This document shows, one piece after another, positions 6,009-20,570 of a DNA stretch of 64,000 nucleotides. The first letter of the stretch is position 1. Each line of letters starts with the position of its first letter. This stretch comes from Oligoflexales bacterium (GTDB lineage: Bacteria > Bdellovibrionota_B > Oligoflexia > Oligoflexales > JAPPIL01). Position numbers and translations under genes: made by a program. Under the pieces are notes generated by a model, which made no database searches, had not been told where the DNA came from, and worked only from the letters and a program-made list of their open reading frames with translations. Where the stretch lies: positions 576,001 to 640,000 of the forward strand of contig OZ244057.1 in the NCBI GenBank assembly GCA_965215515.1, given 5' to 3'.

Positions 6009-6776
6009 GTGCGAAACCAGTGGAGACGATGCGTGAGCAAGAAGAGTTTTTTGATACTGGAATGGGGACAGGGGGAAATTCACACATCGGCGTGGTTTCA
6101 AAAACGGAAAATCGGCCGCCCTCTTATCCACAAGTATTTGGCTACTGGTCTGTTACAACGGCTGGGGGGTGGAGCTTACCTCAAAGCTGGCGATCATCTC
6201 GATTGGCAAGCCGCCCTCTATGCCGCCCAAAATGAACTAAAGCTTCCCATGCATGTTGGCGGTCGCAGTGCACTTGAGCTGTTAGGAGTGAGCCATTACC
6301 TGAATATGGGCAACAGACCTGCGGTATTTTTAATCGCAACGAGACGCTTTAGAATGCCTATCTGGATAAGAACAAACGACTGGGGAGTTGATCTTCGCGT
6401 CAGAACTTCCAGTATGTTCAAAGATGACATAGGCATCGAGATCTTGAAAAGGTCTAATTTTGCTTTAAAGATTTCTTCCCGTGAGCGGGCAATTATGGAA
6501 GTCATCGACACAGTAGATTTGAGCCATTTATTTGAGGAGATAGAACAGTATGCCGAGAATCTTTTAAACATTAGATCGAGCTTGACACAGAAATTGCTTG
6601 AGAAATGCGCATCTATCAGAACTAAACGTGTATTTCTTTACATAGCAAGCAAGATGAATTTACCTGTGGTTAAAAAACTACATATCGACAAGATAAATTT
6701 AGGCAGAGGCGACAGAACTATTGCTTTAAACGGAAAGTTTGACAAAAAATTTGCTATCACAGTGCCTGCTGAATAG
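6009..6776 (+). CDS. abiEi: Type IV TA antitoxin, AbiEi family
   Basis: N-terminal wHTH (LQRLGGGAY), HVGGRSALELLG, SSRERAIME, LLEKCASIRTKRVFLY. Confidence 0.8.
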   Translation: MRNQWRRCVSKKSFLILEWGQGEIHTSAWFQKRKIGRPLIHKYLATGLLQRLGGGAYLKAGDHLDWQAALYAAQNELKLPMHVGGRSALELLGVSHYLNMGNRPAVFLIATRRFRMPIWIRTNDWGVDLRVRTSSMFKDDIGIEILKRSNFALKISSRERAIMEVIDTVDLSHLFEEIEQYAENLLNIRSSLTQKLLEKCASIRTKRVFLYIASKMNLPVVKKLHIDKINLGRGDRTIALNGKFDKKFAITVPAE

Positions 6777-7940: not shown

Positions 7941-9600
7941 GTGCCAACTGCGGGCGACTTGCTGCAGAAGCTCCCTGACAAGGAGAAGGCCAAGATCGCT
8001 AACACCTTGCTTGACGATGTGCGTAAACGCCTCGGCAATTCGAGATTGAGCCTAGTTGCTAATGATACACTAGACAATCTAGCCGTGGATTTCTGGCGCG
8101 TTTCGTCCACCGATCAGCGCGATGGCTACTCCCTCGACGCTCAGGAAAGCAAAGCGGTGGAGTATAAGAAAGCTGCTTGCCTTAAAAGCGTAAAATCTTG
8201 GGCGGTAAGTGAATCGGCATCGAAAGAGTTCGACCGTAAGAAATTCTTTGAGATGATCGGTTTCGTCGTAGAAAATGGCATCAAGAATGTTGTCTTTGAC
8301 AAGATCGATCGTGCTTGTAGAGGTCTAAGGGCAGCTGTGCTGATTGAGGACTTAATCGAATCTGGTGTGCGCTTCTACTTAGGTGTTGTGCTGGCTAAGT
8401 GGTATATCGACAACCTCAAGACCGAGATCAAGAAGGGGCTAAATACGCGGCTAGCTGAAGGCTATTTCAACGCTAGAGCACCCGTTGGCTATATCAACGT
8501 CCGTCCTAAATTTGGCAAGGCTAACCTTGAGGTGCGAGAGGGGGTGGGAGCGTTCATAAGTGAGTGCTTTGAACTCTACAAGACGGGAAACTATTCCCGT
8601 TTAGACCTTGAGAAGCTCGGCATTGCGAAAGGTATCAGCTGGGAATCCGAGCAGCGGGTCTTCAATGAGAACGGCAGGAGCAAGTTAGTTCTCACCACAA
8701 AACACGTCACTGCCAAGATGGCTTGAAAATATCTTGGTAAACCCCGTCTACTGCCAGTGCAGACGGGTTGATAACAAAATCGTAAAGGTCGAGAACGCCA
8801 AGTGGCCAGATCTTACCTCCTACACAACCTTCATGGCTTGCCAGAAGGTAAAAGGGATCAGAGCAATGCAAAGCCACTCCAAAGCAGCCGTTAGCATCCC
8901 AAAACCGCTGATGCAGCTAATGATGTGCCGAGCATGTAGTCACACCGTGACAGGTGAGGTAAAACGCAAAGCTTCAGGCAAGACGTATGTGTATTACCAT
9001 TGTGCCAACCCGCGTTGCTCACAGCGTCGCATCAATACGGAACAGAGAGAGCTGTTTCGGCAGTTTGCCGTTGCCTTTGAACCATTTGCAAGGTTTACCC
9101 CTAAAGCCACTGCCGCCTTCTTGAAGCTGATAAGGGAGCGAGTGAAAGACATCAGCCTCTACTCGGTGGAAGCAGTTAACAAGTTGAAAGCGAAACAGGC
9201 TGAACTCAATCAACGCCTGCAGGAGATTGAAGACTTACAGCAGAAAGGTTTACTGTCGTCTAAAGAGCTAGCCAACCTCAAAGCGGCAAGAGATCAGGAA
9301 GTCGAGGCAGCTGAGGTTGAGATCGGTGCACACATAAAAGCTGATATGCGAACTTTAGAGGTTGGGCTAAACATCATCGAACTGCTAAAGAATGCCCGTG
9401 ACTTCATGCACTTAGATGGGTTTGAACTGGAAAAAGCACGACTGCTAAAAGCAATGCTATCGAACCCGACCTTGGAAGATGGAATTATTGAATTTAATTA
9501 CCGAAAACCGTTCGACGACCTCCTGCACTTGACAGGGGGTCGGAATTGGTGGAGTTTAGCAATCGCGACACAGAATCCGTGCTCATTCCACAATTCCTAA
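7941..9600 (+). pseudogene. Large serine recombinase, frameshifted near 8720
   Basis: RVSSTDQ, DKIDRACR, APVGY and a Zn ribbon (CRAC...YYHC). One extra G in aagatgGcttgaaaat separates KM from LENILVNP; a short deletion is likely at GVRF/YLG. Confidence 0.85.
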
Positions 9601-9609
9601 GGGCAAGGG

Positions 9610-9933
9610 ATGGCATCTACATACAGGGGAGCAGTAGCTAGCATGGCAGCAACGGGCGGCAAAGGTGCACTGAAGGGAGTGCTCTTCGGGGCGGCGATCG
9701 GTGCTGCTAGCAGCTACCTGATCCACAAGGCGTTGCAGAAAAGGGATAGCAAGACGAGGCGGCAGACGCTACTCAACCTCGATAAGTTTTCAGTCTCTGC
9801 ACCGACAAGAGGGCAAGGTGTACAGAACTTTCGGTTGTCAGCTCCTGACGTAGATGCGGGAACAATGTATAAAAAGCGTATGAACCACAAGGAGATGAAG
9901 GCACTGGTGCTGAAGGTTGTGGCGTGGAGCTAG
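9610..9933 (+). pseudogene. Chimeric remnant: glycine-zipper lipoprotein fragment fused to a recombinase N-terminus
   Basis: 5' part matches 41966-42412; 3' part matches 43058 (MYKKRMNHKEMKALVLKVVA); the intervening genes are deleted. Confidence 0.8.
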
Positions 9934-11630
9934 AAAGCGGTAAGTAGCCGCGCTGCGCGGCCTTGCTGAACAGCACATCAGGAGCTGGCAACCGTTTAAT
10001 AAGGAGTGGCCAACGCTTGAAGGGGCAGTTTACTTGCGTCTATCGGATGATACGCAGGTAGCCGTTGAACGGGGATCGCTGGAACAACAAATTCACATCG
10101 CCATCTCTGAAGCCGTATATCGATCAGAGCAGGAGCGGATGAATTACAGGATTACCGAGTTCTACATTGAGCCAGGCATCACGGGCACGCATGGCAATCG
10201 CCCTCTGTTGCCGCTTTCTCGCTCCACATCAGGCTACAGCACAACATCAGCCTCAAAAAACATGGCAATAGCAATTACACCAGCGAACAAGAAGCGAGCT
10301 AGCAAGCGAGCGTTACAAAAAGGCGGCGTAGCGGTTCTTCAGGCTGTGCCAGAAATACGATTGCGAGATATGCCTTAGAGGACTGCCGTTCAACCCTAAC
10401 GACCCCGCTTCGATCTTGCAGCTTGATCAGCTGGCAGCCTTTGCTGAATTTGAATCACGGACGACCTCCAAGCGTATCAGGGAAAGTAATCACTCTGCTT
10501 TGTTGACATCAGGGAAGTTTAACACCCACTACCCGCTATTGGGGTTTGATGTGGTCAGAAATGAATACGGCGAATGCACAGGCATCTACAAGCCCAACAA
10601 GGCAGAGCTAAAGCAGGTTGAGCTGATTATGAAACAATTTCTGCGCGTAGACAGGTTTAATCTGCTGATAGATTGGTGCAGGAAGATGAACATCAAAACC
10701 AAACGAGGCGAGAATTTCACTAAACACAGTATCAGAACGCTGCTGACCAATCCCCGTTACGTCGGCAAGTGGTATCGCAACAAGCACAACGAGGACAAGC
10801 GGCAGAGTAAGCTCATGCCTTATGAACGCTACACCGAAGTTAAATTGTGGCACGGTTGCGTTATCGACGAAGGGCTGTGGCTGCGAATTCAAAACAAGGT
10901 TAAGGAAATAGGCGAGTCGCGAGCACAGGCAATCAATCACTGCTACCCCTTATCTGGTTTGTTGTTTTTCAATGACGAATCAACTTTTGTCGGTAGTAGC
11001 GCATGGGGAAGAAAACGAAGATCGACCTACTACCACAATAGAGTTAACAAAATCAGGATCAGGACAGAGATTTTCGAGACGGCGGTAGAAACGGTCTTGC
11101 GTCAGATCATTGAAAACTCTCCAGAGTTTCAAGCAAGCATTGCAAATCATTCGGCACAAAAAGACACCGCGCTTAGTGTCGCAGCGGGAAAAATTGCCGA
11201 GATCGACACGAAACTAGACGAACTGGCAGACGAGAGGCAACGACTAGACCGCCGTTTGAACTTTCTGCTCGAAGACGATGATCTTGAGATGGCACGCTCT
11301 TTCAGGGAGGAGTATAGGGAGCGAGTTTCTGCTATGAAAGGCGAGGAACAGGAGCTTGCCGACAGGAAGCAACAGCTGCAGTTTGTGCAAAGACAGCTGG
11401 ATGAAACAAAGAACGTCAGCAAGAGCAGTTGGCTAGAGCATGTCAACCAAGCGCGATAAACTGTATAGGCAAGAAGGACTTGGTCGCACTCCAGTCTGCT
11501 TATAGGCGACTGTTTCACAAAATTATTGTTCACCCGTTGGAAAATGCAAAATTGCAGCTGGAGTTTGTTTTTAACGAAGTGTTTACATCTGCTTGCAGGG
11601 GAATGGACAAAATATGTCCCTCGGTTGATA
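9865..11630 (+). pseudogene. Large serine recombinase, copy A, disrupted at several sites
   Basis: YLRLSDDTQ, EPGITGT, AAFAEFESRTTSKR, LLTNPRYVG; paralog of 43058-44420; insertions and frameshifts near 9925, 10205, 10270 and 11450. Confidence 0.85.
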
Positions 11631-11682
11631 GAATGGGCTCTAGAAATGAAGAGACAGAATTTTTGTTCAACCAACAGTTATC

Positions 11683-12145
11683 AATGAAATCAAGCAGCTA
11701 TGACACTTCTTCTCTTATCCCTGAACCCCTGATCAAACAAAAATACCTCGAAGATTGCCTTTCAATTCGAGAAATTGCTAGAGAGTTTTCTTGTTCAAAA
11801 ACACACATCAGAAACCAGCTTCTCAAATACAACATCCCCATTAGAGAACCATCCAAGTATCACAAAGATCACAGCCGCACTTATGGAAAACGGAGGGTCG
11901 GTGGCAAAACCGTAGACCACAAAAGAGAGCAGAGAACCATTGCCACCATCAAAGAGATGTATAGCGAGGGAATCAAGCCAACTTCAATCGCTAGATTCTT
12001 GGATACCATGAAAACTCCCACCAAACAGCAGGGTAAGGGCTGGCATCATCACACGGTTATCACAATTCTCAAGCGAGAAGGGCTATATGTAACAAAAAAC
12101 AAACCTAGGAGGAGAAAATGGACACCATCGTCAATCTCATCATGA
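11683..12145 (+). CDS. Small HTH plus recombinase-like DNA-binding protein
   Basis: LSIREIAREFSCSKTHI (HTH) and YG...IARFLD...GKGWHHHTVITIL. The ORF-track start at 11429 includes the recombinase tail. Confidence 0.55.
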
Positions 12146-12751: not shown

Positions 12752-12782
12752 AATAAGCTTGTGAAAAACAAGCTTATTTTTT
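12752..12782 (+). terminator. Intrinsic terminator-like hairpin
   Basis: aataagcttgt-gaaaa-acaagcttatt followed by tttt. Confidence 0.6.
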
Positions 12783-12800: not shown

Positions 12801-14957
12801 TTGCTCTTAAACCCTCAGTTAGTCTTGGACAGTCGTAGCAATGGGGGTTGTTGGCTAGTTATGGTGAAAAGAATAATATACTCAATTCTAGCATGGACAA
12901 GATGGCTGTTGACTGGCACGGAAGACTCTATAACGCCTAGACCACCTGCCATCACACGGCAGAGAAGAAAGGATTCAAACAGCCATAGAGAATCTCTGAG
13001 TAGTCAAGATAGCCTGACTTACGAAACCCCCACCGAACAACCTTCAGATGACGATGTATCTGCAGTGTCAACAATCACCACAGTCAATGAGTCTTGCTCA
13101 GTCCCCTCTAATGATGCGTCACCATCTCCAAACACTAATGGTCTGGAGCTAGAGTCTTCCAGCCTGTCAGAAGCCACGCAAAAAGAGATGAAGATGCCAT
13201 CTACACAGCAGTCTGCTAGAATTCCACAAAAAACTTCGCATGAAGTCGTCAAACAACCCGGAGGCAACTCTCATCAAGAAATGCCTAATACTGCAGGTGC
13301 AGGCAATATAGAACCCAAGAAGCCAAAACTGCCACGCAAGATTGGAGGAAGACGTAGGCCAAAAGAACAAAAAACAACGCGACAGCCACCAAAACCTCGT
13401 CCAGAATTGATTTGTCGCGAGAATTGTGAATCTCAGCAGTGGGAGATAATCCTGACCGCAGGTGACGAATGCCAGATCAAGACCGTACATCAAAACGGTG
13501 TTTCTTTGGACATGAGAGACCATGAGTATCGCCTCTCGTCACTCACCAAACCATTGCAAATAGTTCTTGAGAGCGGGGAAGAATATGGATTCCCACTGTT
13601 TGAAGAGAAGCCATTTATTTTTAAATTGAGAAATGACTGGAAAGACAAGGGGCGTAAGACGGCTAGCATCAACAGGGGGCACTTTCTTGTAATTGTACCA
13701 AAAGAATGGGAACGAACAGGTCATGTTCCAGTTGAACCAAGCTTTTGCATGAACAAAAGTTTTAAGGCACATTATTTTTTCGGAGAGGATAATTATTTGG
13801 AAGAAGACATTGGAGGTTTTAGTCAGTGTGCTTTACCAACCAAATCAATTTTTAAGCTTACTGGCCAGCGTGTCTTCGATGATTCTGATGGCGGTGAACT
13901 GTTTGTTGGTGCTGTCCCAAGCTTAAAGCTTTTACAAGATATTGGTTGGGTGCGAATAGGAGAGGAGAAAAAAGGCGGTTGGAAGGGTGAAAATTTCAAT
14001 TCCAATGAGCAGAATATAACAGACATATTGAGTAATCGTGAGGGACATTTTTTTATCAGAGTTTATGATAACGAAGCTAGACAACTGGATAGTGGCGAAT
14101 TTCGTTATCTGAGTGATCTCGAAAAAATACTTGTGAATGGTAAGCCATACGAAAGAAATATGGTTCTTGTCCCGCCGCCGACTGGCTACCCTACGATAAA
14201 CGTGAGTTTCATTAGCAAAAATAACACAACCCTGCGTCCTATCTTGATGCACGATACGCAACACACTAAAGTGCAGGGAAGTAACCTCATTGTCGAGGCA
14301 CACCCAGATGGAGACAGTATATCTTGTAAACTTGAAAGCAACACAGGCAGTGTTGATCTCATATTAAATCTGCCGCGTATCTGGTGGAAAATTACCAGTG
14401 GTAAGTCTGATGAGTGGCATGACACACCACTTGTAATGACACGGCAGGAATTTTCTAAACATGCCAAACTGGATACCTATATCCAAATCCGTTTGTCACA
14501 ACGATTACGACATATTGGTGTTGGTTTCAACGACGAGTTAGAGCGAAAGTATAGTCGGGAGGGAGGTAAAAATGGCATTAACATCAGGTTGAAGGATTTC
14601 ATCGATTACTCACAAATAGATCAAAGGCTGGATAAGGATGCCGTGTTTAACATCAAGTGCGATGAAGAGATACTAACAATAATCAAGATTTCCTCCGATC
14701 CTATACCTGATAATGTCTCCGATGTAACCAAAAGTGTCACAGTATCTCAGCTGATAAAGCAAACAGGTAAACCAACAGCTATTGTAAGGAAAGTTACTGG
14801 TGGTTGGCGGAGAGGCAGGGGGTTTAGCATTGGCGAGATTAAAGATGCTGGGCTTACAGCTGCTGAAGCTATACACAGCTCTATTTCAGTTGACAAGCGG
14901 CGAAGAAGCACGCATTCAACTAACACAAAATTCATTAGGATACTGATAAATGCCTGA
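12801..14957 (+). CDS. Large hypothetical protein with a disordered N-terminus and a C-terminal ribosomal eL13-like domain; helicase partner
   Basis: C-terminus GRGFSIGEIKDAGL...ISVDKRRRSTH matches the eL13 signature; overlaps the helicase start. Likely ATG at 12861. Confidence 0.75.
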   Translation: MLLNPQLVLDSRSNGGCWLVMVKRIIYSILAWTRWLLTGTEDSITPRPPAITRQRRKDSNSHRESLSSQDSLTYETPTEQPSDDDVSAVSTITTVNESCSVPSNDASPSPNTNGLELESSSLSEATQKEMKMPSTQQSARIPQKTSHEVVKQPGGNSHQEMPNTAGAGNIEPKKPKLPRKIGGRRRPKEQKTTRQPPKPRPELICRENCESQQWEIILTAGDECQIKTVHQNGVSLDMRDHEYRLSSLTKPLQIVLESGEEYGFPLFEEKPFIFKLRNDWKDKGRKTASINRGHFLVIVPKEWERTGHVPVEPSFCMNKSFKAHYFFGEDNYLEEDIGGFSQCALPTKSIFKLTGQRVFDDSDGGELFVGAVPSLKLLQDIGWVRIGEEKKGGWKGENFNSNEQNITDILSNREGHFFIRVYDNEARQLDSGEFRYLSDLEKILVNGKPYERNMVLVPPPTGYPTINVSFISKNNTTLRPILMHDTQHTKVQGSNLIVEAHPDGDSISCKLESNTGSVDLILNLPRIWWKITSGKSDEWHDTPLVMTRQEFSKHAKLDTYIQIRLSQRLRHIGVGFNDELERKYSREGGKNGINIRLKDFIDYSQIDQRLDKDAVFNIKCDEEILTIIKISSDPIPDNVSDVTKSVTVSQLIKQTGKPTAIVRKVTGGWRRGRGFSIGEIKDAGLTAAEAIHSSISVDKRRRSTHSTNTKFIRILINA

Positions 14958-17900
14958 CAAAGACGACATAAAGGATTGGCCTAAGAAAATTTGCCAACGC
15001 TACGAGAGCTACTTAAAAACATCCTTCTTCTTTAAATATCCTAATCTCAGAAAATCTTTCCAAGAAGCATTGAGGAAAGAAGGCAGTCTTATGAAAGATC
15101 CAATCCCTGAAGAATATCGTAGTTTTAAGAAAGGCTTGACAGCTCAGGCATTAGCACAGAAATTTTTCCCTAGTAACAGCGATAGTCTTCTTCCAACTCT
15201 GATCGACGAGCAACTTTATACTCACCAAGAGAATGCTATTCGAGCCGCACATTCAAATTTTAACATCGTCGTTGCCACTGGCACAGCTAGCGGCAAGACC
15301 GAGAGTTTTCTTTACCCGATATTGTTCGAGCTGTATCAACAATATCTTGACGGCGAGCTTGAGAGGACTGGTGTGCGTGCTATGATTCTTTATCCTATGA
15401 ATGCACTTGCCAACGATCAGCGCGAGCGTCTTGGTGAAATCTGCAAGAATCTGGAAGATGCTGGTTCTAGGTTCAAGCCAACATTTGGGCAATACATCGG
15501 TCAGACACCTAATAACGCTCGTGACTATCACCGTAATGCTACAACACGAAGAGAAGATCGTCTGCCTGGAGAGCTTATTTTCCGTGATGATATGCGAAAA
15601 ACACCACCCCACATATTGTTGACCAACTACTCGATGTTAGAATATCTGCTCATTCGTCCTGACGACAGTCCACTGTTCGACAACGGTATGGGTAAACATT
15701 GGCAATTTATTGTGCTCGACGAGGCACATCAGTATCGTGGTGCTAAGGGCATGGAAATGGGTATGCTTATTCGGCGACTCAAACAGCGGTTACGAGACGG
15801 AGGGCGACAAGAGCCATTCCGTTGTATCGCTACCAGTGCCACCATTTCTTCTGGTAAAAGTGAGCAAGATAAGCAAGTGGTTGCTAATTTTGCTAAGGAA
15901 CTCTTTGGAGAAAAATTTTCTGCAAATGATGGCATTATTTTTGGTGATCCTGCACCCTCTAATAACGAAACACCTACTCGTTATCACGCCTTCTTTCGAG
16001 CACTTGAAGGGGCGTTTCTAATCCATAAAAACGGCGAAGATATTGTGGTACTCAATCGCAAAAGTGAGGGCGAAAACGAGAAGAGTGCAGTACCATTGGA
16101 AATAGCCTTGTGCAGAGAATGTGGCCAGCACTACTACGTTGGACGAGAGCATGAGGGAAAACTAGTGGAAGCTATACGAGATCCTAGTGACCCCCACTTC
16201 GGTGTAGACTACTACCTGCCTTTAAAGGATGACGATAATACGGGTGATGGACACGCACTATTGTTGTGCAGGAGCTGTAGTAAGATATCAAAATCCAAGC
16301 CAGAGTGCAGTTGCAATGCGACAATTTTTGTCAAAAAATGCGAACCACATAAAGATCATGCAGATCAGCTAGTGAAATGTGAGATCTGTGACTATAAGCG
16401 CGGTGGCATTGGTGACCCAGTGCAGGAAATTGTGCATGGCACTGATGGTCCCAATGCGGTTATAGCGACTGCTATGCACGAGTTATTGCCAGAGAATAAG
16501 CGCAAGGTACTTGCATTCGCTGATAGCCGTCAGGAAGCAGCGTTCTTTGCTTGGTACGCTGAGGATTCTTATGAAAAATTACGCGATCGCAACCTCCTTT
16601 TGAGAGCTATGACATTCAGTCGAGTTGACAAGGAGGGCTTATCCATAGATGATCTTAAAAACCGCCTATTACGCCAGTGTGAACAAGCTGGTCTATTTGT
16701 TAAAGCAGAAACCAAAGAGCAAAAGAGTTGGCAGGTACTAACGTCAATTTTGCGTGAAGCACTTACAGATGAAAGAAGATTATCCTTGAGCGGGGTTGGA
16801 TTAGTTAAGTGGTTTGTTAAGATTCCAGAAGATTTGATTGTACCAGAAATTATGCTACAGCCGCCGTGGAGTTTCACAAGAGAAGAAGCACTTTGTTTAA
16901 TTGGTTACCTATTGGATGAGCTACGCCTACACCGTGCCATGAATTTGCCAGAGAATGCCGCTACTCCAGATTGGAACGATGTCTCACCTGATCGTATACA
17001 AATTAGCTATTGCAAGGGGAAACCAGGAAGACAAAAGGGCGTGTCACAGTGGGGAAGTCCTCAGTCTGCTGTTGTCAAATACTTTCTGCGCAGGCTACTA
17101 GAAGGTAGTAACCTTCTAGTCGAGCAACATCAGGGAGAGTCAACAAAGCTGATGGAAGAAATATGGGATGTAATAAGAAAAATCAAAGATCCCCCAATTC
17201 TCTCTACTGGCTCGAATAACGGAACGTTTCGCCTCAACCCATGCTGGCTGCGCATCAAACCCGTTAAATTTGATGAGATATGGCAATGCGACACCTGCGC
17301 AAGTCTGAGTACTCACAACATTAGAAATGTTTGTCCACGCAATCGTTGCCCTGGCTTTCTGAATAATGTCGAGGAGAAGCAAACTGAGGAAAACCACTAC
17401 CGAATCATCTACAAAAGCACTGAGTTACCTCCTTCACTTAGTGCCAAAGAGCATACGGCACAGATTGATACCGACAAGGCACGGCAGCGGCAGCAAGAAT
17501 TCAAGGACGGAAAGATCCATCTACTAAGCTCTTCGACAACTTTTGAGGTTGGTGTCGATTTGGGTGATCTAGAAATCGTGTTTCTCCGTAACGTGCCACC
17601 AGAATCTTTCAACTACATCCAGCGTGTCGGACGGGCAGGAAGACGGGATACACCAGGTTTGGCAATAACCTACTGTCGTCGTAATCCACACGACCTCTAT
17701 CATTATGAAGATCCAAATAGAGCAATAAAGGGTACTATACACCCACCACACCTGAATATGACAAACGAAAAAATTGTATTGCGACACATGGTCGCTACCG
17801 TACTATCAGCGTTCTTCAGAGAAAATGAAGGTCGCTTCAAAGGCGTGGAGAGCTTTATCAAGAACTGGGACAGCCCGGCGATGGTAGGCGATGTAAGACA

Positions 17901-19197
17901 ATATTGTGAGGAAAACAACAAATTGCAAGATTACTTATGTCAAATTGTGCCCCAAGACATGCACGAGAAAACAGGGCTTGAGAATGGTGAATGGGTCAAA
18001 TATATTACTGGCGACAACAGTCGCCTCGCAATATCAGAGAAAGAAGTTAGCGAGGACTATAAACACATGGATAAAATAAGAGAAGAGGAGGCTAGTAAGA
18101 AAAATTATAGCCGTGCAGGTCGCATCGTCAGTCGCATGAAAACAATTGCCAGTGAGAAAACATTAGATTTTCTTTCTCGCAAAGCTGTTATACCGAAATA
18201 TGGCTTCCCCGTAGATGTTGTCGAGCTAGATACTCGCTCCGCGGATAAAAACAAAAGTGGCATCACTCTCCAGCGAGATCTATCTCAAGCTATTGCTGAG
18301 TATGCTCCCGATGGAAAAGTGGTAGCCAACAAGCTAGAGTGGAAATCGTGTGGAGTAAAAGTTGTATCTGGCAAAAGATTTCCTGTAAGATATTATCAAT
18401 ACGATAATGCTCGCAATTTTAACCAGTGGAACGAGGGTGATCCATCCAAACCGGAAGATGTTGAAAAAAAATATCTTATCCCAGAGTTTGGCTTTGTTAC
18501 TCCCTTTCTTGAGAAACCCAAACCACCGTCCAGACGGACACCACGTCTTTACACAACGCGTCCATTTTTTTTAAAGCCTAAAGAAGAAAATGAACTTGAG
18601 CCTAAAAACATTCTCGGCGTACAGGTGATCGCTCCACAGCCAGGTACTCTGGTTATTCTCTGTGAGGGAAAAAACATGAACAGATTCTATGTTTGCCTTG
18701 ACTGTGGTTGCCACATGGCAAAGACAAAAAAAGAACACAAATCTCCTTTTGGCTCAGATTGCAAAGGAATGTTAAAACGGTTTTCACTCGGCCACGAAAT
18801 GGTCACAGATGTTGTGCGCTTACAATTTCCAGATGTGTGTAACGAGTGGAAAGCCTATTCTGTTGCTTATGCCGTCTTACTTGGTACAGCGGAAACACTG
18901 AGCGTTCCTGCCAGTGACCTGAATGTAACCATAACTGGTGGCCGCAAGCCAGACGAATCCGCTATCGTGCTCTATGATAACGTACCTGGTGGAGCGGGGC
19001 TGGTGGCACAATTGGAACAGGAGGAGGTATTTCGTGAGATGATCACCAACGCGAAGAACAGAGTTGTAGGCAATTGCGGCTGTGATTCCAGTTGTTATGG
19101 TTGTCTGCGTAGCTACCGCAACCAATTCGCACACCCTCACCTAGATCGTAGGCTGGCACTAGAAGTTCTCGAAGGTGTAGAAAAGAACGAGATCTGA
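14950..19197 (+). CDS. SF2 DEAH helicase with C-terminal DUF1998 Zn domain (DruE/MrfA-like)
   Basis: TGTASGKT, DEAH, SAT, TTFEVGVDLG, QRVGRAGR, several CxxC motifs, LYDNVPGGAG...CGCDSSCYGCL. Confidence 0.9.
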   Translation: MPDKDDIKDWPKKICQRYESYLKTSFFFKYPNLRKSFQEALRKEGSLMKDPIPEEYRSFKKGLTAQALAQKFFPSNSDSLLPTLIDEQLYTHQENAIRAAHSNFNIVVATGTASGKTESFLYPILFELYQQYLDGELERTGVRAMILYPMNALANDQRERLGEICKNLEDAGSRFKPTFGQYIGQTPNNARDYHRNATTRREDRLPGELIFRDDMRKTPPHILLTNYSMLEYLLIRPDDSPLFDNGMGKHWQFIVLDEAHQYRGAKGMEMGMLIRRLKQRLRDGGRQEPFRCIATSATISSGKSEQDKQVVANFAKELFGEKFSANDGIIFGDPAPSNNETPTRYHAFFRALEGAFLIHKNGEDIVVLNRKSEGENEKSAVPLEIALCRECGQHYYVGREHEGKLVEAIRDPSDPHFGVDYYLPLKDDDNTGDGHALLLCRSCSKISKSKPECSCNATIFVKKCEPHKDHADQLVKCEICDYKRGGIGDPVQEIVHGTDGPNAVIATAMHELLPENKRKVLAFADSRQEAAFFAWYAEDSYEKLRDRNLLLRAMTFSRVDKEGLSIDDLKNRLLRQCEQAGLFVKAETKEQKSWQVLTSILREALTDERRLSLSGVGLVKWFVKIPEDLIVPEIMLQPPWSFTREEALCLIGYLLDELRLHRAMNLPENAATPDWNDVSPDRIQISYCKGKPGRQKGVSQWGSPQSAVVKYFLRRLLEGSNLLVEQHQGESTKLMEEIWDVIRKIKDPPILSTGSNNGTFRLNPCWLRIKPVKFDEIWQCDTCASLSTHNIRNVCPRNRCPGFLNNVEEKQTEENHYRIIYKSTELPPSLSAKEHTAQIDTDKARQRQQEFKDGKIHLLSSSTTFEVGVDLGDLEIVFLRNVPPESFNYIQRVGRAGRRDTPGLAITYCRRNPHDLYHYEDPNRAIKGTIHPPHLNMTNEKIVLRHMVATVLSAFFRENEGRFKGVESFIKNWDSPAMVGDVRQYCEENNKLQDYLCQIVPQDMHEKTGLENGEWVKYITGDNSRLAISEKEVSEDYKHMDKIREEEASKKNYSRAGRIVSRMKTIASEKTLDFLSRKAVIPKYGFPVDVVELDTRSADKNKSGITLQRDLSQAIAEYAPDGKVVANKLEWKSCGVKVVSGKRFPVRYYQYDNARNFNQWNEGDPSKPEDVEKKYLIPEFGFVTPFLEKPKPPSRRTPRLYTTRPFFLKPKEENELEPKNILGVQVIAPQPGTLVILCEGKNMNRFYVCLDCGCHMAKTKKEHKSPFGSDCKGMLKRFSLGHEMVTDVVRLQFPDVCNEWKAYSVAYAVLLGTAETLSVPASDLNVTITGGRKPDESAIVLYDNVPGGAGLVAQLEQEEVFREMITNAKNRVVGNCGCDSSCYGCLRSYRNQFAHPHLDRRLALEVLEGVEKNEI

Positions 19198-19381
19198 TAC
19201 CACCAGTAGTAGACCATTGCCGTAGCCTACAATCACATTCAGAAATTCACACAACCAAACTTGTTTGTTAAAACTGCAAGCTGATACATCAAAGTGGAAA
19301 ACAGTGCGTTAACTACCCTACCTTGATCGGTCGAGTGTGTGCAGGCTATCATATATTATATATCAGCTCTGGAGAAAATCA

Positions 19382-20570
19382 AATGGCATTAGAAATGGTA
19401 GTGCTGTTTTTAGTTACCTTACTGGTTACATGGGTAGCCACCTTTTTCTTTCAGGTTAAACCAATTAGCAGACGAGCTTCCAATGCTGAAAAAGATCTTA
19501 CAGAAGCAAAAGCACGAATTAGTGCGTGGGAAAACACGGAGGCTCGCTTTTCCTCTTTGGCATACAAGGCTCTAAATTCCAATAGCGAACACTACCTAAA
19601 CCTTGTAAGTGAACGATATAGTCAACATGATAAAGATGCAAAAAATGACTTAGATAAACGACAAGAAGCCATAAAAACCCTTGTCTCACCTATAAGTAAG
19701 AGCCTGTCAGAATTTGAAGGTAAGGTTGGTGAGATCAAGAAAGAGTACGGATCGGTGACAGCAAAGGTTAGCTCTATGAATGACATCCAAGATAAACTAC
19801 GCTCGGAAACTAATCGCCTAGTGAGAGCTCTCCAACGTCCAGAAGGGCGCGGTGCCTGGGGAGAGCTTCAATTCCGTAATGTGGTTGAGATGGCTGGGAT
19901 GGCAGAACACATAGATTTTGAAGAACAAAGCACTATCTATGGCAAGGAAGACAAGTCACGTCCTGATGCAATTATTCGCCTTCCTAATGATAGGCTGCTT
20001 GTGGTGGATACAAAAACGCCAATTGACTCATATTTGGAAGCATCAAAAGCATCTAACGAAGACGAGCGCAAGGTTTATATGAAGAACTATGTAAACAATT
20101 TCAGAAAAAGCATAGATGACCTTTCTTACAAGAGTTATTGGGGTAAGCTACAGGATAAGCTAAAACGTGTACCTGACTTCGTAGTCATGTTCGTACCAGG
20201 AGAGGCATTCTTTTCTGCTGCCCTAACCTCTGACCCTAAACTAATTCAATATGGAGTAGAGAAGAATGTAGTGATTGCCAGTCCAACTACTCTTATAGCT
20301 CTTTTGAGGACAGTTGCCTACTGCTGGCAGCAGCACAAGTTCACCGAAAATGTGGAGGAGGTTTCAAAGCAGGCAAAAAAGCTATTTGAAAGCATCAAGA
20401 CGTTTGGTGAGCATATGTCAGGTCTTCGTAAAACTTTAGAAAATGCAGTGAAAAAATTCAACGACAGTATTGGCTCACTTGAGCGAAATGTATTACCAAA
20501 AGCAAGGAAATTTGTGGATTTAGGTGTTATTCCTGCCAAGGAGGAAATTCCGGAAATATCCTCCATCTAA
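19382..20570 (+). CDS. rmuC: DNA recombination protein RmuC family
   Basis: N-terminal TM plus coiled coil, RGAWGELQ, RPDAIIRLP, VVDTKTP, PDFVVMFVPGE, SPTTLIALLRTV. Confidence 0.9.

Follow-up and report, generated by a model that had tools for sequence, protein, structure and literature searches.

The C-terminal position of a protein family that we call H is an exchangeable slot. In the copy studied here the slot holds a homologue of the globular core of the ribosomal protein eL13. H and a DruE-like helicase are encoded as a conserved two-gene module, which lies in a low-GC island of the 64,000 nt of Oligoflexales DNA that were analysed (the window).

H and a compact DruE-like helicase form a conserved pair

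The following features were assigned, all on the + strand.

12801..14957, +: gene of H, 718 aa when read from TTG 12801; the likelier start is ATG 12861
12861..13397, +: low-complexity N-terminal region rich in S, P, T, K and R (composition, alignment consensus)
13326-13358, +: conserved basic motif K-x-P-R-x-I-G-G-R-R closing the N-terminal region (alignment consensus)
13398..14720, +: predicted all-beta conserved core, an array of Ig-like/beta-sandwich domains, residues ~200-640 (AlphaFold model)
14721..14768, +: predicted flexible linker (pLDDT <50 at model residues 414-431; alignments)
14769..14954, +: C-terminal eL13-core-like domain, residues 657-718 (Pfam, NCBIfam, phmmer, profile and fold searches)
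14950..14957, +: 8-nt overlap ATGCCTGA, holding the start codon of the helicase gene and the stop codon of H
14950..19197, +: compact DruE-like helicase of the YprA family, 1415 aa (PADLOC, Pfam, PDB)
15220-15849, +: DEAD/DEAH domain of the helicase (Pfam DEAD 2.5e-19; DEAH at residue 257)
17422-17646, +: Helicase_C of the helicase (Pfam 1e-10)
18865-19107, +: MZB/DUF1998 of the helicase (Pfam 6.1e-12)

The core of H matches no Pfam or PADLOC model, and H is by its sequence a new family. It comprises 723 clusters (50% identity, E<=1e-3). The AlphaFold model of H (494 residues) reaches a mean pLDDT of 86.9, and 31 columns are invariant in an alignment of 67 H sequences. The low-complexity N-terminal region varies between relatives in length and content. 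The position of the linker is occupied by an extra Ig-like domain in many relatives, of which the H of the window keeps the last strand alone (DVTKSVTV). Foldseek with the whole 494-residue model returned generic Ig arrays only (TM 0.11-0.17). A search for longer fused forms gave two matches only, of which one is an SNF2 fusion and the other has Ig/PEGA-like pieces. A literature search on the H subfamily and the module returned no description.

The helicase carries six CxxC motifs and ends 29 residues past the MZB domain. It has no nuclease domain, and Pfam reported no PLD family. All seven PADLOC DruE models (E 5.4e-160 to 5.9e-106, with DruE1 at 5.4e-160 and DruE3 at 2e-148) rank far above DpdJ, BrxH and DrmA. 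The NCBIfam model TIGR04121 of the repair-linked, ligase-associated DEXH helicase reaches 1.1e-16 only. In the PDB the helicase matches the DruE-type chain 9tu7_Y (3.7e-74) and YprA (6znp_A, 5.8e-25). A preliminary description of this DNA had named a Druantia-type DUF1998 helicase, which the DEAH at residue 257, the MZB/DUF1998 domain and the DruE1 match bear out.

A survey of co-occurrence, as proposed in that description, covered 56 related loci, all from MAGs of many phyla and none of them archaeal. A DruE-like ORF lies immediately 3' of the H gene in 50 of them. Where complete, the helicase is similar across loci (tblastn 1561-2116 bits over nearly the whole length). With helicase starts taken as tblastn alignment starts, the genes overlap in 35 of the 50 loci with both, in 26 by exactly 8 nt. 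The 8-nt overlap makes translational coupling of H to the 1415-aa DEAH/DUF1998 helicase likely, as the preliminary description had it.

GC content is 0.43-0.45 in 2-kb windows over the module and 0.52-0.57 from 50 kb to the end of the window. The module is neighboured by AbiEi, relaxase-like and serine-recombinase genes. Together with the occurrence in MAGs of many phyla, this points to a mobile module. It is present once in the window's own genome, within the island. No conserved third gene was found in the flanks of the 56 loci; the commonest family occurs in 4/56, all from a single close clade. An RmuC recombination gene (19323-20570) adjoins the module in the window. It was considered as a third component or as a nuclease acting in trans and was discarded, being present in 0/56 related loci.

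The C-terminal domain of H is related to the core of eL13

The last ~60 aa of the 718-aa ORF had been described as eL13-like, and Pfam, NCBIfam, PDB profile and fold searches agree. The tail signature reads GRGFSxGExxxAG...VDxRRRSxHxxN. Pfam Ribosomal_L13e (PF01294) matches residues 669-705 at profile positions 62-98 of 180 (E 5.3e-7), with 30.1 bits against a gathering cut-off of 24.9. The NCBIfam model of archaeal L13e (NF008914) matches residues 668-713 at positions 27-72 of 83 (E 1.6e-11); its score of 43.7 bits is below the equivalog cut-off of 96, and the tail is not a full-length eL13. The top phmmer match in the PDB is Pyrobaculum eL13 (9e6q_AH, E 2.7e-5). With a profile of 40 tail sequences this chain scores 1.2e-14, and eukaryotic eL13 ~1e-9.

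The fold model of the last 85 aa of H has a domain core with pLDDT >90, and its top 50 Foldseek matches, a check likewise suggested beforehand, are eL13 chains only. In a VIA search of 48,161 chains eight eL13 representatives score Z 8.2-10.5, while the next, unrelated row has Z 2.4. The eL13 fold matches superpose with an rmsd of 1.5-2.9 A over 63-67 residues. The likeness to eL13 is far above chance, and sequence and model comparisons identify the tail as a homologue of the globular core of eL13. Fold and signature of this core are common to both, with 24-36% identity over 63-67 aligned residues, whereas the long N- and C-terminal extensions of eL13 have no match in H. The tail closes a bacterial protein of 718 aa, and bacterial ribosomes contain no eL13. 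In eL13 itself the globular core binds rRNA.

DotG/IcmE is the best PDB match of the tail profile (E 3.8e-18). It is not counted as a homologue because its score sums 16 weak matches, each with E >5, to the GFSxxELxxAG repeat.

The tail is exchanged across the H family

Among 281 non-identical H members 234 carry an eL13-like tail and 36 another one, while 11 are cut. The eL13-like domain is the dominant and apparently the ancestral tail, and its absence from homologues, which would have spoken against the original proposal, is not what the family presents. On a FastTree tree of the H core at least 31 tail changes are needed. Two S17 tails have different eL13-bearing members as their tree neighbours.

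The other tails include S17 (L033 2.7e-27, P0089 2.4e-30), S2 (L054 3.6e-92, P0253 7e-94), S5 (P0138, P0149), S6 (P0226, 6.6e-25), S18 (P0236, 4.3e-13) and a C-terminal repeat of NusA (P0161, 1.7e-7), whereby the S5, S6, S18 and NusA cases are gene calls on metagenome contigs. Sigma-70 regions 2-4 are found at the N-terminus of L049 and L051. A NusG match in L044 (E 0.0034) failed the cut-off and was left out of the evidence. Recurrent non-ribosomal tails (types a to f) had no matches in Pfam and NCBIfam, and the tail profiles A3, A4 and A5 found nothing in the PDB. The protein Atlas gave no usable match for the type c tail and weak winged-helix leads for type a (score 0.78).

In L054 the S2 tail has 92.8% identity with the S2 of its own genome, which is encoded in an rpsB-tsf-pyrH operon. 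The tail is full-length, shows a dN/dS of 0.21 against the host S2 and was retained as the identity of the H core fell to 67%. Its sequence marks it as a recently captured copy of the host rpsB. Another copy of S2 in this genome (99.2% identical) is part of a fusion with an HNH-like protein, whose operon also encodes a sacsin-like ATPase and an SNF2 helicase. A fused S17 is only 41% identical to the S17 of its host.

Since relatives fill the same position with S2, S5, S6, S17 and S18, a link of the tail to RNA or ribosomes is indirectly supported. The helicase stays similar while the tails change, so that the partner of the tail is unlikely to be DruE itself.

Relation to Druantia

Druantia is widespread, and the role of its partner proteins is debated across 2026 preprints, which, as far as covered here, favour a sensor, an ssDNA binder or an exonuclease. 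The preliminary description had suggested testing with PADLOC whether the pair is already classified as DruH/DruE. The helicase is of DruE type, but by sequence the partner is not DruH: neither the H of the window nor five relatives gave a DruH match at E<=10. On the PADLOC DruH3 models E. coli DruH itself reaches E = 0. Aligned by hhalign, the H family profile A1 and E. coli DruH reach 0.3% probability. The best 60 of 89 matches of A1 in the PDB are eL13 only, and no solved DruH chain appeared in the fold searches of H models. On PADLOC, hhalign and the listed PDB profile matches, homology of H to DruH was rejected. The partner of a compact DruE on a Clostridium butyricum plasmid was likewise considered as a relative of H and is unrelated.

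The overall plan is nevertheless similar to Druantia type III-A of E. coli and P. aeruginosa. This system is likewise a gene pair, in which the partner gene precedes, and is coupled to, that of a DruE-type YprA helicase whose DEAH, Helicase_C, Zn and DUF1998/MZB modules are also present in the window. DruH, too, combines Ig-like domains with a C-terminal domain. It has an N-terminal helical, six Ig-like and a C-terminal helical domain; the H model, which starts after the N-terminal 200 residues, shows an Ig-like array and a small C-terminal domain. In contrast to the helical N-terminal domain of DruH, H has a seemingly disordered N-terminus, and its C-terminal domain is eL13-like. Type III-A DruE is ~2100 aa long with two C-terminal PLD-like nuclease domains, whereas the window helicase has 1415 aa and no PLD. 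In the covered parts of the respective reports, the N-terminal helical domain of DruH is linked to exonuclease activity (Loeff et al.) and the nucleic acid that DruH of type III-A binds or processes is ssDNA rather than RNA (10.64898/2026.05.12.722862; 10.64898/2026.05.13.724313).

In the type III-B-like systems a compact DruE, mostly without nuclease domain, is combined with a single partner gene as here (Bell et al. 2025, 10.1101/2025.09.15.676423; Gaudin et al. 2026, 10.64898/2026.05.13.724758). The window shares the compact, nuclease-less DruE form of Bell et al. 2025, which is a likeness of form. In what we covered of both reports the III-B-like partner is described only as lacking annotated domains. 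Their main texts contain neither 'L13' nor 'ribosomal', the covered parts of the supplement neither 'L13e' nor 'ribosomal', and six accessions of related loci are not among the listed rows of the helicase table of Bell et al. 2025.

Possible function of the module

A defence function of the module is suggested by homology and context. Our joint reading, which we hold as possible though somewhat short of probable, is a mobile Druantia III-like anti-phage module with H as a sensor tied to the translation or transcription machinery by its exchangeable tail. The helicase would be the conserved motor and H a sensor or adaptor, with an Ig-like scaffold and an exchangeable recognition domain on a flexible linker. 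This candidate recognition domain is the homologue of the rRNA-binding core of eL13 in the window and in about five in six relatives, and a bacterial small-subunit ribosomal protein or transcription-factor domain in others. The eL13-like, S2, S5, S6, S17 and S18 tails may tie H to the ribosome or rRNA, and the sigma-70 and NusA pieces to RNA polymerase. An infection-linked change at the tethered site could then license or recruit DruE, and invader DNA would be unwound. Binding of the tail to ribosomes or RNA is suggested by the nature of the tails; its coupling to helicase activity is part of the same proposal.

Several points count against this reading. An N-terminal extension of 650 aa may keep S5, S17 or S18 from being built into 30S subunits. 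Type III-A DruH handles ssDNA and not RNA. The commonest tail has no counterpart in bacterial ribosomes; these lack eL13 and are not known to have a site for it, so that this tail cannot simply occupy a known place.

Should the tails dock on ribosomal and transcription proteins or mimic them, surveillance of the translation machinery would be joined to a defence helicase that is directed at DNA, and this link would offer a handle for finding the phage factors that are sensed. The H family is a natural experiment, in which the motor is constant, the partner modular and the slot filled by differing, identifiable host proteins. Outside the ribosome, the core fold of eL13 is a common one in bacteria, a point of relevance to the origin of archaeal and eukaryotic eL13.

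A somewhat unlikely alternative is that nucleic-acid binding alone led to the recruitment of ribosomal proteins, NusA HhH repeats, sigma-70 and winged helices, with no link to the ribosome. H shares the overall plan of an Ig array with a small C-terminal domain, every identified tail binds nucleic acid in its native setting, and the invariant tail residues (G, F, S, E, D, R-R, N) make up the signature of eL13, which we take to be RNA-facing. However, the S2 tail was kept full-length, 93% identical to the host S2 and under purifying selection on an H core down to 67% identity, and we know of no role of S2 as a free-standing nucleic-acid binder. Moreover all five kinds of bacterial ribosomal tails are small-subunit proteins, which a random draw from all ribosomal proteins would give in roughly 1 in 100 cases (a rough estimate that takes the small subunit to have 21 proteins and the large subunit 33).

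Rather unlikely is the further reading of H as an immune receptor with integrated host gene-expression pieces (S2, S5, S6, S17, S18, NusA, sigma-70) as baits or docking handles, in which phage attack on ribosomes or RNA polymerase, or their take-over, would activate the DruE-type helicase. If true, it would be a bacterial counterpart of the integrated decoys of plant NLRs, and the eL13 fold, regarded so far as restricted to the ribosomes of archaea and eukaryotes, would have a large non-ribosomal branch in bacteria.

Clearly unlikely is the bait reading, according to which phage take-over factors bind or modify certain host proteins and the tails are copies of these; a struck bait would change H and release or activate DruE. 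Within a single genome, two unrelated defence-like operons have each recently captured a copy of the host rpsB, the shuffled tails resemble specificity cassettes, and the tail sits on a linker predicted to be flexible. Phage proteins (T4 AsiA, lambda N) directly target sigma-70 region 4 and the C-terminal repeats of NusA. In plant NLRs copies of host proteins were inserted repeatedly at a variable position of the immune sensor, with which the slot of H is compared only in its way of working; the proteins are unrelated, and the commonest insert of H is not a host protein. Against the bait reading speaks the dominant and apparently ancestral tail: it resembles eL13, a protein that bacteria lack and that therefore cannot be mimicked in them, and archaeal loci number 0/56. 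Furthermore, the fused S17 has diverged to 41% identity from the host protein, and we know of no phage effectors for S2, S5, S17 or S18.

A housekeeping or element-maintenance pair (repair, conjugation-linked DNA processing) with incidental RNA-binding domains is highly improbable, although RmuC is adjacent in the window and YprA/MrfA relatives work in DNA repair according to the covered part of Bell et al. 2025 (10.1101/2025.09.15.676423). Against it stand the ranking of the DruE models over DpdJ, BrxH, DrmA and the repair-linked TIGR04121, the unconserved flanks including RmuC, and the single copy within an island. The terminal domain of H is hypervariable, as is typical of conflict systems.

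The C-terminal domain of H is eL13-like

H is encoded directly upstream of a Druantia-like helicase. The features of the locus are:

12752-12778, + strand: terminator-like hairpin with an 11-bp stem and a T run, just 5' of the H ORF
12801-14957, + strand: H ORF, 718 aa from TTG 12801
14950-19197, + strand: DruE-like helicase ORF (P0002), 1415 aa
19323-20570, + strand: RmuC-family gene (Pfam 2.9e-89), directly 3' of the helicase

Residues 669-705 of H match Pfam Ribosomal_L13e (PF01294) and pass its gathering cut-off (30.1 bits versus 24.9), and residues 668-713 match the archaeal L13e model NF008914 (E 1.6e-11). The best PDB match found by phmmer is Pyrobaculum eL13 (9e6q_AH, E 2.7e-5). When 40 tails, taken from the window and from related loci, are combined into a profile, the same chain is matched at 1.2e-14 and eukaryotic eL13 at ~1e-9.

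The last 85 residues of H were modelled using AlphaFold, giving a domain core with pLDDT >90, and the Foldseek top 50 for this model consists exclusively of eL13 chains. Searched against 48,161 representative chains, it retrieves eight eL13 chains at Z 8.2-10.5 (rmsd 1.5-2.9 A over 63-67 residues), the next row being an unrelated chain at Z 2.4. The eL13 likeness, which the preliminary description had read from a C-terminal motif and proposed to check by Pfam and Foldseek, is real, as both return eL13. The tail corresponds to the globular core of eL13 only; the extensions are absent.

Within the eL13 signature, the GFSxxExxxAG stretch (14814-14870) also resembles the periplasmic repeat unit of Legionella DotG/IcmE (PDB 7muc/9ngw), each unit matching weakly. 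DotG/IcmE was rejected as a homologue of the tail because its top profile score is the sum of 16 weak matches to the repeat.

H and a DruE-like helicase form a conserved two-gene module

A search with the H core, i.e. the Ig-like array preceding the tail, retrieves 723 clusters at E<=1e-3 and 292 at E<=1e-30 among 1.84 billion representatives. In contigs from one genome per species we find 56 H loci from many phyla; all are MAGs, with no cultured isolate among them. Many belong to lineages that we take to be sponge or coral symbionts, and such lineages include Spongiisociaceae, Azotimanducaceae, Latescibacterota, Binatia, SAR202 and Rhodothermales.

A co-occurrence survey had been proposed, and it pairs H with a DruE-like ORF directly 3' in 50 of the 56 loci. 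Regarding the remaining six, the contig ends in or just after H in L004, L050 and L055, H is truncated in L028 and L056, and 4.9 kb 3' of H in L008 hold no match. The two genes overlap in 35/50 loci, by exactly 8 nt in 26, taking alignment starts as helicase starts. Every other flanking family is confined to 4 or fewer of the 56 loci, so that no conserved third gene was found. H and the DruE-like helicase thus constitute a conserved two-gene module.

P0002 carries DEAD, Helicase_C and MZB/DUF1998 domains (Pfam); its DEAH box is at residue 257, and it contains six CxxC motifs. It had been taken for a Druantia-type DEAH/DUF1998 helicase, and its top PADLOC models are indeed DruE (DruE1 5.4e-160, DruE3 2e-148). 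Its solved relatives are the large DruE-type helicases 9tu7_Y (3.7e-74) and 9wae_A (1.7e-40) as well as YprA (6znp_A). No nuclease domain is present, the protein ending 29 residues past the MZB domain. Judged by domain form, this compact, nuclease-less helicase is in keeping with the 'Druantia type III-like' branch described by Bell et al. 2025 (bioRxiv 10.1101/2025.09.15.676423), which is named subtype III-B by Gaudin et al. 2026 (10.64898/2026.05.13.724758).

H is distinct from DruH

The DruH/DruE classification by PADLOC, which had been left to be checked, holds for the helicase as DruE but fails for H as DruH. PADLOC DruH models do not match H or five relatives even at E 10, while the E. 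coli plasmid DruH used as control (annotated 'STY4851/ECs_5259 family') matches the DruH3 models at E = 0. Moreover, hhalign of a 67-sequence H-family profile against E. coli DruH yields a probability of 0.3%. Nor is H related to the partner of a compact DruE carried by a Clostridium butyricum plasmid. Based on these comparisons H represents a new family.

The model of residues 225-718 (mean pLDDT 86.9) shows a beta-sandwich array, then a disordered linker and the small tail. Foldseek matches it to Ig arrays such as contactins and DSCAM; matches of that kind are also reported for DruH in Loeff et al., where DruH is described as an N-terminal domain, six Ig-like domains, then a C-terminal domain. 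The domain plan of H thus resembles that of DruH, with an Ig-like array before a C-terminal domain, but the N-terminus of H is of low complexity where DruH has a helical domain.

The C-terminus is an exchangeable slot

An eL13-like-tail HMM is positive in 208/248 retrieved proteins. After adding locus proteins and removing identical cores, 281 proteins drawn from the best 150 of the 723 family clusters and further listed proteins divide into 234 with eL13-like tails, 36 with other tails and 11 that are cut.

The other tails include further ribosomal domains, as seen by Pfam: Ribosomal_S17 in L033 (2.7e-27) and P0089 (2.4e-30), full-length Ribosomal_S2 in L054 (3.6e-92) and P0253 (7e-94), Ribosomal_S5 with N- and C-terminal domains in P0138 and P0149, Ribosomal_S6 in P0226 (6.6e-25) and Ribosomal_S18 in P0236 (4.3e-13). 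P0161 ends in a NusA C-terminal repeat (NCBIfam, 1.7e-7, below the model cut-off). For S5, S6, S18 and NusA the fusions are known as gene calls from databases. At L033 and L054 the DNA itself was read: the ribosomal domain follows the H core and is followed in turn by an intact DruE. Another six or more recurrent tail types have no family match.

In Acidobacteriota, H measures 1360-1450 aa (L049, L051, L052, L053). Sigma-70 regions 2, 3 and 4, and after them a match to region 1.2, lie in frame 5' of the core in L049 and L051, the two scanned for these domains; L052 and L053 are known by equal frame length. The Acidobacteriota proteins have a divergent eL13-like tail in which the GKGFS and RRR motifs are lost. 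In L044 and P0252 the H core is fused to an SNF2 helicase, recalling the RapA/BrxHII-like helicases of ARMADA and DISARM. The L044 fusion (L044:6513-11807) comprises a full SNF2 and a weak NusG-like stretch (E 0.0034), 5' of DruE.

With the observed tail labels placed on a FastTree tree of the H core, at least 31 tail changes are counted. The two S17 proteins and several tails of one recurrent type (type a) have nearest neighbours with eL13-like tails, which points to repeated tail replacement or cassette exchange. Taken together, the C-terminus of H is an exchangeable slot.

We found no published description of the eL13 match or the tail swaps of this family, nor literature joining Druantia with L13e; what turned up on integrated decoys against phages concerns NLRs. 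The preprints by Gaudin et al., by Hu et al. and by Bell et al. do not use 'L13' or 'ribosomal' in their main text, and 'L13e' and 'ribosomal' are absent from four Bell et al. supplement files, one of them covered in part. The Pfam match is already visible in databases, since many family members in the protein collection carry automatic PF01294 labels.

Ribosomal tails are additional copies

The genome of L054 contains three S2 domains, one in the usual rpsB-tsf-pyrH setting. The H-fused S2 is 92.8% identical to the rpsB-operon S2, with 10 aa and 28 nt differences over 226 codons (dN/dS 0.21). This fusion, with identical derived junction residues, recurs in P0253, which shares 67% core identity with L054, and it is therefore sufficiently old to have been inherited and retained. 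In L033 the fused S17 shares 41% identity with the genome's own S17. The ribosomal tails are thus additional copies.

The third S2 in the L054 genome is 99.2% identical to the host S2 (1 aa difference in 226) and makes up the N-terminal part of a 697-aa protein whose C-terminus is HNH-like. The gene lies between those for a 1077-aa sacsin-like ATPase and a 1011-aa SNF2 helicase in a three-gene operon (L066:5553-13877, +) adjoined by an N6 DNA methylase gene, a second, unrelated defence-like system with a captured S2.

Possible role of the tail

The helicases remain alike from locus to locus (1561-2116 tblastn bits for complete ones) while the tails change; most likely the tail addresses something outside the H-helicase pair. 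Since the identified tails are all derived from components of translation or transcription, and the five kinds of bacterial ribosomal protein among them all belong to the small subunit, we tentatively favour, with somewhat less than even confidence, a recognition module aimed at that machinery. Plain ssDNA/RNA binding by the tail is the main rival, possible but rather unlikely; it has an analogy in DruH of type III-A, for which such binding has been shown. The idea that the tails act as integrated bait imitating host proteins has its appeal where the tail is S2, sigma-70 or NusA, yet it leaves the dominant eL13-like tail unexplained, and we consider it improbable. Since bacteria have no known eL13 to imitate, binding of structured RNA or the ribosome would be the likeliest role of the eL13-like tail.

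The module in the window

The two genes had been described as coupled, and in the window H ends and the helicase begins within the same 8 nt, ATGCCTGA, which hold the stop codon of the one and the start codon of the other. Since TTG 12801 directly follows the terminator-like hairpin, ATG 12861 is the likelier start of H. The hairpin position moreover hints at a promoter of the module's own between 12779 and 12860, but none of the consensus promoter-like sites maps to this gap.

GC content in 2-kb windows is 0.43-0.45 over the module (12-20 kb) versus 0.52-0.57 in the stretch beyond 50 kb. Just 5' of the module Pfam indicates AbiEi, a relaxase-like gene and serine-recombinase pieces. The AbiEi antitoxin-like regulator gene (6009-6776, +; Pfam 2e-33, PADLOC AbiEi 2e-65) is followed by a Replic_Relax-domain gene. 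Large-serine-recombinase domains (Resolvase N-terminal, Zn ribbon, Recombinase x2) extend over 4-5 successive ORFs at 7941-12145 (+), which could represent either disrupted genes or more than one recombinase at the edge of the island. RmuC, present in 0/56 related loci, was rejected as a module component and, not being conserved with it, is probably separate island cargo. The window's own genome carries one copy of the module.
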